Shown in pieces: positions 18,001-19,856 of a stretch of 33,438 nucleotides of DNA. Where the stretch lies: the IMG/VR virus record IMGVR_UViG_2531839440_000004, positions 1-33,438 of that record; one strand, given 5' to 3'. Numbering within the stretch: the stretch's first letter is position 1; the number at the start of each line of letters is the position of its first letter. The stretch is from a virus. Taxonomy: Duplodnaviria > Heunggongvirae > Uroviricota > Caudoviricetes. A program made the position numbers.

Positions 18001-19856
18001 CGGGGACGTGCGGAACAGCGATAAAGCCACACGATATGCAGGCAGCGATTGCCTGTAGCTCGTGCCACGATTTAATCGACGGGCGGGTAAAAACCAGCGA
18101 TTACACCAAAGAAGAATTACGCCTGATGCATGCAGAAGGTGTTTTTCGCACACAAGAAATCTGGAGAAAGGAGGGATATTTATGATTTACCCAACGAATA
18201 CAGGAAAAAGCGGAGAACACCTTCGTCTCACCACGCTGGAAAGTGTCTGGATTCAGGGAAAACTGCGCATGTGGGGGCGCTGGTCGTATATTGGCGGCGG
18301 TAAGACGGGGAATATGTTCAACCAGTTGTTGGCCTCTAAAAAGCTGACGGTGATGCTGCCAACTTACTGATTTAGTGTATGATGGTGTTTTTGAGGTGCT
18401 CCAGTGGCTTCTGTTTCTATCAGCTGTCCCTCCTGTTCAGCTACTGACGGGGTGGTGCGTAACGGCAAAAGCACTGCCGGACATCAGCGCTATCTCTGCT
18501 CTCACTGCCGTAAAACATGGCAACTGCAGTTCACTTACACCGCTTCTCAACCCGGTACGCACCAGAAAATCATTGATATGGCCATGAATGGCGTTGGATG
18601 CCGGGCAACAGCCCGCATTATGGGCGTTGGCCTCAACACGATTTTACGTCACTTAAAAAACTCAGGCCGCAGTCGGTAACCTCGCGCATACAGCCGGGCA
18701 GTGATGTCATCGTCTGCGCGGAAATGGACGAACAGTGGGGCTATGTCGGGGCTAAATCGCGCCAGCGCTGGCTGTTTTACGCGTATGACAGGCTCCGGAA
18801 GACGGTTGTTGCGCACGTATTCGGTGAACGCACTATGGCGACGCTGGGGCGTCTTATGAGCCTGCTGTCACCCTTTGACGTGGTGATATGGATGACGGAT
18901 GGCTGGCCGCTGTATGAATCCCGCCTGAAGGGAAAGCTGCACGTAATCAGCAAGCGATATACGCAGCGAATTGAGCGGCATAACCTGAATCTGAGGCAGC
19001 ACCTGGCACGGCTGGGACGGAAGTCGCTGTCGTTCTCAAAATCGGTGGAGCTGCATGACAAAGTCATCGGGCATTATCTGAACATAAAACACTATCAATA
19101 AGTTGGAGTCATTACCAAAGCTGACAAAAACGGCAATTAACGAGGCGCTCCGGAGGATGAAAAAAGCAGGTCTGAACAAGTCTGAACTTGAGGCTTTTTT
19201 GCGGGATATGATTAACGGTAAGCAAAAGAGCTGGCTGGCGCATTGTACTGATGCAGAGGCGTTATGTATTGATCGGGTGATTAGTGAAGTGCTGGCAGAA
19301 CACCCAGGATTGATTTTTATCCTCCGGCAACGATATGAAGGAAGGGGGATGACTAAGCGAAAAATGGCTGAATTGCTAAATGATGCACACCCTGAGTGGT
19401 GTTTTAGCACATGCGAAAAGCGAATTGCTAATTGGTTGGCTGTTGCTGAGTATGCGCTGTACGTTCCCATGCGAGAATCATTCGCTCAAAAAATAGCTTG
19501 ATTTTTTACGCATAAACTGCTTCAATTCCGGTATGCTTCGCAAAGCTGTATCGCGAGGCGAATAGCAGTTTTGAACATCTAAAGACCCCGTTTAATGCGG
19601 GTTTTTTTATGCCCAAAAACGAAGTAGTGCGTTAAAATGTGATGGTCGGGAGTATACAGACTTTTATATAGCACTGCGTAAAAATCAATTTATCCGGGGT
19701 AAATGTCAATTTGCTTATTAAAAAAACAAAAAGATAAATTTATAGCAATTGTGTTTCTTTGGGTTGAAAGTTTTAATGTCGTCAGTATTATCTGAAGCGG
19801 TTCTGAGGAGGGGGTTTCCATTGCTCGGCCACGATACTTCCGAGGAACCAATTAAC

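Follow-up and report, generated by a model that had tools for sequence, protein, structure and literature searches.

The last gene slot before the late region is the position of the antiterminator Q in lambdoid phages. In the annotated phage 21, the stop codon of Q is followed after 7 nucleotides (nt) by the -35 element (TTGACA) of the late promoter, a spacer of 17 nt that the Q-binding element occupies (direct repeats of 8 base pairs (bp) between the -35 and the -10), the -10 element and the transcription start, and further downstream come a pause element, a terminator, two tRNAs, and the holin and endolysin genes. Here we describe a 33,438-nt stretch of DNA of a tailed phage (IMG/VR record IMGVR_UViG_2531839440_000004, positions 1 to 33,438; hereafter the window), in which an insertion sequence, the last of four IS1 copies, splits a gene of the DUF1133 family that occupies this slot. 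Profile comparisons and the arrangement of the DNA beyond the gene make it highly probable that DUF1133 belongs, as a distant branch, to the superfamily of the phage 21 and 933W Q proteins, and that the split gene is the late antiterminator Q of a Rac-type lambdoid prophage.

An IS1 element is about 768 bp long, ends in imperfect terminal inverted repeats of about 23 bp, and expresses insA and insB' by way of a -1 frameshift at an A6C motif; its insertion normally produces a target-site duplication of 8–9 bp, and relatives with the unoccupied site can be found. By its length, terminal inverted repeats, frames, frameshift motif, duplication and empty site, copy 4 of the window shares every feature of a classical simple IS1 insertion, and nothing about it is unusual (Table 1). 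Its ends read GGTGATGCTGCCAACTTACTGAT and, as the reverse complement, GGTAATGACTCCAACTTATTGAT, the four copies in the window are 0–2 nt apart from each other in sequence, and the IS1 genes, in contigs identical to that of the window, match the Pfam models Zn_ribbon_InsA, HTH_Tnp_IS1, and DDE_Tnp_IS1. The 9-bp repeats that flank the element are intact and identical, a match expected by chance for a given pair of 9-mers with a probability of about 4e-6. As a first reading of the window from its sequence only had proposed, removal of the element and one repeat restores a single frame, namely a 543-nt open reading frame of 180 amino acids (aa) that contains ...NQLLASKKLTKTAINEALRR..., and its start codon, with AAAGGAGGG just 5' of it, shares the tetranucleotide ATGA at 18182 with the stop codon of the preceding YbcO gene. 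In its interrupted form the frame runs to 18370, giving a 62-aa product of 56 native residues followed by the IS1-encoded VMLPTY, and the element, sitting after residue 56, parts the N-terminal helix from the helix-turn-helix/DNA-binding core.

The empty site was found in one complete Escherichia coli genome, that of strain 214-4 (NZ_CP025840), whose IS1-free Rac-type prophage aligns with the reconstructed region in one unbroken match of 99.7% identity. A BLAST alignment of the window with the 214-4 locus places both IS1 flanks on the same stretch of exactly 9 bp (16446–16454 of that locus, L001), and the 9-mer is therefore single-copy there. The restored gene differs from the 214-4 gene at two bases, both synonymous, and the protein is identical to WP_000640134.1, so that the comparison with an IS1-free relative bears out the reconstruction. 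This exact 180-aa protein is on record on 266 contigs. Records of the 62-aa product, entered as a hypothetical protein, are confined to E. coli isolates of the MP021017.x set and to a few draft assemblies whose accession numbers adjoin theirs; an exact scan of the GTDB species representatives gave no occurrence of the left junction, and the complete RefSeq E. coli genomes are likewise without this junction. Partial DUF1133 proteins of Shigella flexneri that fall in the same 90% cluster were considered as further examples of the split allele and rejected, as they read through the insertion site; judged by their sequences, they are contig-end truncations unrelated to it. IS1 transposed into codon 56 and created the 9-bp duplication, which reduced the Q gene to a stub of 62 aa and a 3' fragment that lacks a promoter. 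The sequence comparisons indicate that the insertion is real, simple, and recent.

Table 1. Features of the window at the IS1-split Q-like gene, in the promoter and terminator region that follows it, and in the neighbouring genes.
Feature	Position	Strand	Remarks
IS1 copy 4, complete	18349–19116	+	768 bp
Left inverted repeat (IRL) of IS1 copy 4	18349–18371
Right inverted repeat (IRR) of IS1 copy 4	19094–19116
insA of IS1 copy 4	18404–18679		91 aa
insB' frame of IS1 copy 4	18598–19101		167 aa
A6C frameshift motif AAAAAAC of IS1 copy 4	18655–18661
Left target-site duplication	18340–18348		AAAGCTGAC, 9 bp
Right target-site duplication	19117–19125		AAAGCTGAC, 9 bp
5' fragment of the Q-like (DUF1133) gene	18182–18348	+	codons 1–56
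3' fragment of the Q-like gene	19126–19501	+	codons 57–180 plus stop; sigma-region-4-like helix-turn-helix core
Putative PR' -35, TTGATT	19498–19503	+	overlaps the Q stop TGA
PR' spacer, candidate Q-binding element	19504–19520	+	17 nt; TG end at 19518–19519
Putative PR' -10, TTCAAT	19521–19526	+	read from sequence
-10-like TATGCT, candidate sigma-dependent pause element	19532–19537	+	about -1 to +5; five bases after the -10
Conserved early-transcribed motif	19538–19562	+	TCGCAAAGCTGTATCGCGAGGCGAA
Intrinsic terminator, candidate tR'	19587–19608	+	CCCGT/GCGGG stem and T7
DUF1367 (NinB/Orf-like) gene	17296–17895	+	PF07105, E 9.9e-98; first of the DUF1367-YbcO-Q trio
YbcO (DUF1364) gene	17895–18185	+	PF07102, E 3.8e-45; TGA overlaps the Q start
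tRNA-Thr(UGU) and tRNA-Gly(UCC)	19857–20010	+	between tR' and the lysis genes
Promoter-like site belonging to the tRNAs	19764–19791
Strong terminators after the tRNAs	20374–20395, 20423–20440
Holin	21245–21637	+
Holin	21627–21902	+
M15 peptidase endolysin	21905–22282	+

The identification as Q, which had been made from the position of the gene alone, is now backed by sequence profiles. The restored protein matches the Pfam family DUF1133 (PF06576) over its full length (E 3.8e-107; 355.8 bits against a gathering cut-off of 23.1; residues 1–175 on profile positions 1–175 of 176). With PF06530, the model named as the Q21/Q933W family by Yin, Kaelber and Ebright (10.1101/651190), it gives a borderline match (26.2 bits, cut-off 26.0), and with PHROG 753, 'anti-termination protein Q-like', a match at 5.5e-79. 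A single-sequence search of the PDB returned the Q protein of phage 21 (Q21) at E 0.24, suggestive only, whereas a profile built from 21 family members found the solved Q21 (6p18/6jnx) at E 4.1e-9 in two collinear stretches, and hhalign against phage 21 Q aligned residues 14–179 on 6–153 with a probability of 96.8% and E 3e-10. The models of lambda Q (PF03589) and Q82 (PF06323) gave no match in a Pfam scan at E up to 0.1. The profile search of the 180-aa protein against antiterminator families thus found matches to them, an outcome in favour of the sequence-only identification. DUF1133 itself is narrow, comprising 67 clusters at 50% identity; the representative search was queried with the family member P0001, which is 96% identical to the restored protein.

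Against the Q21 structures (PDB 6P18, 6P19, 6JNX), the restored protein shows about 21% identity, and the homology extends over nearly the whole of Q21. Both families have an N-terminal W-rich helix of the form LxLTxxxxxWhxGxLxxWGxW, and the family-invariant residues T151 and C152 align with T125 and C126 of the Q21 recognition helix; K133 aligns with K94, which contacts the DNA backbone in Q21 (PMC6606751). The proteins differ in that the base-contacting R127 and R128 of Q21 are replaced by E153 and K154 (PMC6606751), that the 13-residue Q21 loop bearing the minor-groove contact R113 is absent from DUF1133, and that DUF1133 is longer by about 29 residues in the segment linking the N-terminal helix to the core, which in Q21 forms the ring in the RNA exit channel. 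The IS1 insertion point falls inside this extra segment.

Directly beyond the gene lie a putative late promoter (PR'), a -10-like element and an intrinsic terminator, and a PR' transcript ending at that terminator is predicted to be a leader RNA of about 76 nt. To place these elements in the family we use 201 related loci from IMG/VR and E. coli, representing 139 distinct downstream regions, whose proteins share 47–99% identity with P0001 or with the query of the subfamily through which they were collected; the loci are mutually related, and the counts that follow are counts of non-independent events. A hairpin with a T-run ends 69–106 nt past the stop codon (median 74) at 137 of the 139 distinct loci, as against 7.8% of shuffles, with at least four different terminator sequences at the same place and, beyond the terminator, everything mosaic. 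The pattern TTGnnn-N15-18-TTnAAT-N5-TAnnCT is present at 127 of the 139 loci and in none of 2780 shuffles, and nearly all of the loci that bear it (124 of 127) have TG at the extended -10 position. TAnGCT is kept across the DUF1133 family, TAAGCT being among the variants there, and the early-transcribed motif that follows it in the window is kept across subfamilies down to 47% protein identity. Written in full, the family pattern is TTGnnn-N17-TGnTTnAAT-N5-TAnGCT-(T)CGC(A/G)AAGCTGTATC..GCAAGCG (window 19498–19562 and about 127 related loci), in which the conserved leader motif GCTTCGCAAAGC is partly palindromic. In the type found in the window the stop codon of the gene falls within the -35, and in the P0122 and P0132 types it falls within the -10; since the pattern stands at differing offsets from the stop among subfamilies, its conservation is no by-product of the coding sequence. 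The possibility that TATGCT is the true -10 was rejected, as the conserved TTG of the -35 lies 17 nt 5' of TTnAAT and 28 nt from TATGCT. A unit of promoter and terminator between the gene and the late genes, on which the sequence-only reading had made its identification depend, is therefore present in the window and in intact relatives alike.

The layout common to phage 21 and the window is a -35 at or just after the Q stop codon, a 17-nt spacer, a -10, TAnGCT, a terminator, tRNAs and lysis genes. Phage 21 has TAAGCT as its annotated pause element, at +2 to +7, and the candidate counterpart in the window is TATGCT; the element follows the -10 after 5 nt in the window and 7 nt in phage 21, and the predicted leader is about 76 nt long as against about 48 nt. 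The spacer is kept within DUF1133 subfamilies. Unlike that of phage 21, the window-type spacer is without TGAGCA repeats, and the Q-binding site must therefore differ from that of phage 21. Only the spacer of the P0132 subfamily (L102–L112) carries ATGAGCCA and, 8 bp on, GTGACTGA, which resemble the phage 21 Q-binding half-sites ATTGAGCA and AATGAGCA. From these arrangements we infer the functions of PR', the pause element and the Q site.

A DNA-binding protein encoded beside a promoter need not be an antiterminator, and DUF1133 might instead be a sigma-region-4-like activator (or repressor) of the adjacent promoter that acts on initiation and not by processive antitermination. The DUF1133 core is indeed a helix-turn-helix with the resemblance to sigma region 4 reported for Q21 (10.1101/651190), the non-canonical -10 of the promoter might require activation, and the protein departs from Q21 in the ring region, with its extra residues, and in the absence of the minor-groove loop. 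An activator of initiation, however, would not need the promoter-proximal terminator, which is kept at nearly all loci despite its repeated replacement; TAnGCT, placed where transcription starts, corresponds to the pause element of phage 21; and the homology with Q21 covers the N-terminal helix as well as the core. We consider this explanation very improbable.

Proteins of the same family, at 75–98% identity, have been recorded in Escherichia phage Rac-SA53 (KU052037, 'q'), in phage vB_EcoS-683R6 ('antitermination protein Q'), in PHROG 753 and in Shiga-toxin (Stx) phages (PMC8136144). These Rac-type and related phages have the same trio of DUF1367, YbcO and Q ahead of inserts and lysis genes, with intact copies of the Q gene where that of the window is split by IS1; in Rac-SA53 the leader past the promoter is unrelated to that of the window, and toxin genes stand in place of the tRNAs. 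In Gifsy-1, a promoter directly after the Q gene makes a short RNA that ends at a terminator (IsrK, 77 nt), and read-through reaches the genes downstream (PMC4825925). The logic is analogous, and the length of IsrK is close to the roughly 76 nt predicted for the leader in the window. Gifsy-1 AntQ/IsrK was nevertheless rejected as the studied counterpart of the system, for AntQ (STM2617) is of the Q82 type and not homologous; the Rfam isrK model scores 11.5 bits on the window against a threshold of 50, and isrK was absent after the DUF1133 genes in the 16 loci examined.

By analogy with phage 21, Q of an intact system of this kind would be the last product of the early-right operon, its translation coupled to that of ybcO. 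The late promoter begins within Q's own stop codon; Q would bind a site in the spacer of this promoter, would load on RNA polymerase paused at the -10-like TATGCT, and would take the polymerase past the terminator tR' and past those that follow the tRNAs, on into the genes for lysis and morphogenesis. With Q split, no functional protein would be made, PR' transcripts would end as the leader of about 76 nt, and the intact lysis cassette would stay silent.

A number of observations weigh against the identification of the gene as Q. The threshold of PF06530 is cleared by only 0.2 bits, NCBIfam has no model that matches the restored protein, and we found no experimental antitermination data for DUF1133 proteins in the literature. 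The Q label in Stx phages, 'DUF1133 (Q antiterminator HHPred)', is at the level of HHpred (PMC8136144), and the Q calls in phage records are at the level of annotation. The AlphaFold2 model of the restored protein is of low confidence (predicted local distance difference test, pLDDT, 55.7); when this weak model was searched with Foldseek, the top 10 PDB matches were all Q21 chains (E 7e-3 to 8e-2, TM 0.40–0.55), and the next match came at E >3. Downstream of the gene, the family -10 hexamer TTnAAT is consistently without the canonical A at -11, a simple promoter scan of the window gave no call at the proposed PR', and the window-type spacer has no clear direct-repeat Q-binding element. Lastly, the immunity region and PR of the prophage are deleted, and so Q may have been untranscribed already when IS1 landed.

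This last point belongs with the other lesions of the prophage, of which the Q split is one of several. Relative to 214-4, a deletion of 1371 bp with a junction at about 7625–7629 and 5 bp of microhomology takes the repressor, the cro-like gene, part of ydaT and the divergent promoters, and a deletion of 16.2 kb with its junction at 24360|24361, whose end-points are the gene that follows parB and the middle of the baseplate-hub gene, takes the terminase, the portal, the head and most tail genes. IS1 copies 2 (12349–13116, minus strand) and 3 (14563–15330, plus strand) have swapped 9-bp repeats, GGAGGAAAA and AACTCTGCC, and the 1446-bp segment between them (13117–14562) is inverted with respect to 214-4; the sequences indicate that the inversion is the product of recombination between these two inverted copies. 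Copies 1–3 and the inversion interrupt the early-right operon. The sequence-only reading took a switch-off of late-gene expression, if the gene is Q, to be consistent with a defective prophage. The Q gene is indeed split, but this is not the sole reason for the defect, nor demonstrably the first, because with the immunity/PR and late-gene deletions and the other IS1 copies both the silence of the late genes and the non-viability are over-determined. The prophage is unable to form particles, and the insertion is an ordinary step in prophage decay, a routine knock-out by IS1 of a Q21-related antiterminator.

Two further observations were made at these lesions. IS1 copy 1 (7783–8550) is without a target-site duplication, and 9 bp of the relative (ATGGAAAAA, L001 8193–8201) are missing at its position. 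The inversion between copies 2 and 3 truncates a gene for a 'beta family protein'.

The insertion in Q could accordingly be neutral debris, having struck a gene already silenced by the immunity/PR deletion and by the polar effect of IS1 copies on the early-right operon. This is quite possible, though we would put it slightly below an even balance. It agrees with the loss of the repressor, the cro-like gene and the promoters, with the position of copies 1–3 and the inversion between that deletion and Q, with the disappearance of 16.2 kb of late genes, and with an allele confined to the closely related MP021017.x isolates and found neither in complete E. coli genomes nor in GTDB representatives. 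Set against it, the two synonymous differences are too few for any long drift of the restored gene, the lysis cassette is 100% intact, so that residual expression of Q would do harm, and two other genomes have suffered independent IS1 insertions in the same Q-PR' switch.

These two, E. coli FDAARGOS_943 (duplication CGCGAGGCG) and 13P484A (GTTTCGCAA), carry IS1 in the PR' leader directly after an intact DUF1133 gene, at about +28 and about +11 (L096 3390–4157, L097 3368–4135), and bring to three the separate IS1 events on the switch, that of the window included. They raise the question of whether the loss of Q is selected: in a prophage without its repressor, or when derepressed, a Q-driven holin and endolysin would kill the host, and insertions of IS1 that inactivate Q or the site where it loads would be favoured and recur. 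The lysis genes are intact behind a broken Q and the repressor region is deleted, as selection would have it; other remnants of Q, fused by deletion, are on record; and over-expression of Gifsy-1 AntQ, a different phage Q of the Q82 type, is itself toxic (PMC4825925). Yet there are three IS1 events only, the search that found them favoured IS1 adjoining Q, and the genomes concerned are rich in IS1 (median 10 matching places each). On these data selection is indistinguishable from chance; we think it rather unlikely and treat it as a lead only.

Among decaying prophages, Q was also seen to be a frequent end-point of deletions. The chimeric remnants P0124, P0126 and P0130, all from public databases, are fusions of Q 1–87 and a tail-fibre N-terminus, a DUF1367 N-terminus and Q 106–180, and a YbcO N-terminus and Q 94–180.

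A bolder view, which we find doubtful and somewhat less probable still than selection, is that DUF1133 would be a mechanistically distinct branch of Q21 proteins, with an enlarged ring linker, no minor-groove loop, and a loading site on a family-wide TGnTTnAAT promoter that lacks A at -11 and is followed 5 nt on by TAnGCT and by a conserved leader of about 25 nt, and that its Q-PR' switch would be repeatedly disabled by IS1, locking an intact lysis cassette in decaying prophages.

The neighbourhood of the gene fits the identification as Q of a Rac-type prophage. From 967 to 7629, the window is 99.8% identical to the arm of 214-4 that carries intR, xisR, ralR, recT, recE and kilR, and this collinearity of the early left arm indicates, at the level of sequence, that the window is a Rac-type lambdoid prophage. 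In 214-4 these genes are followed by replication genes, hokD, DUF1367, DUF1364 (YbcO) and DUF1133, and beyond DUF1133 by tRNA-Thr, tRNA-Gly, a frameshifted TerB gene, DUF3927, two holins, the M15 peptidase, the terminase and the structural genes. The claim that the gene is the last before the late region and coupled to a YbcO-like gene holds. The DUF1367 protein differs by one amino acid from that of 214-4, the YbcO protein is identical, and the two holins and the endolysin have 100% protein identity with this IS1-free relative, leaving the cassette intact. The trio of DUF1367, YbcO and DUF1133 recurs in isolated phages as well as in other prophages of E. coli and Salmonella. What comes next varies, being a set of tRNAs or, in Rac-SA53, the eplBA toxin genes, and beyond these inserts stand unrelated lysis cassettes.

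A TerB-family gene of the window (20583–21009), located past the tRNAs and ahead of the lysis cassette, is split into two overlapping frames; it is annotated as frameshifted in E. coli 214-4 and F9792 and is intact, with 141 aa, in Salmonella relatives. The small-RNA loci of Rac-type prophages are still present, with Rfam matches at gathering level to RalA, the antitoxin of RalR (1557–1735), DicF (7275–7326, minus strand) and Sok (16412–16583).

Our understanding of Q proteins and of IS1 is unchanged by these findings. A split Q, the result of an IS1 event dated as recent, would account for the silence of an intact holin-endolysin cassette in a decayed Rac-like prophage. As for the family, there is good confidence in reading DUF1133, which is of 'unknown function' in Pfam and RefSeq, as a late antiterminator related to Q21, and this reading comes with a recognisable promoter, pause element and terminator. 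It should help with the annotation of prophages in which toxin genes or tRNAs occupy this position, such as LT-II/Rac-SA53 and some Stx phages.

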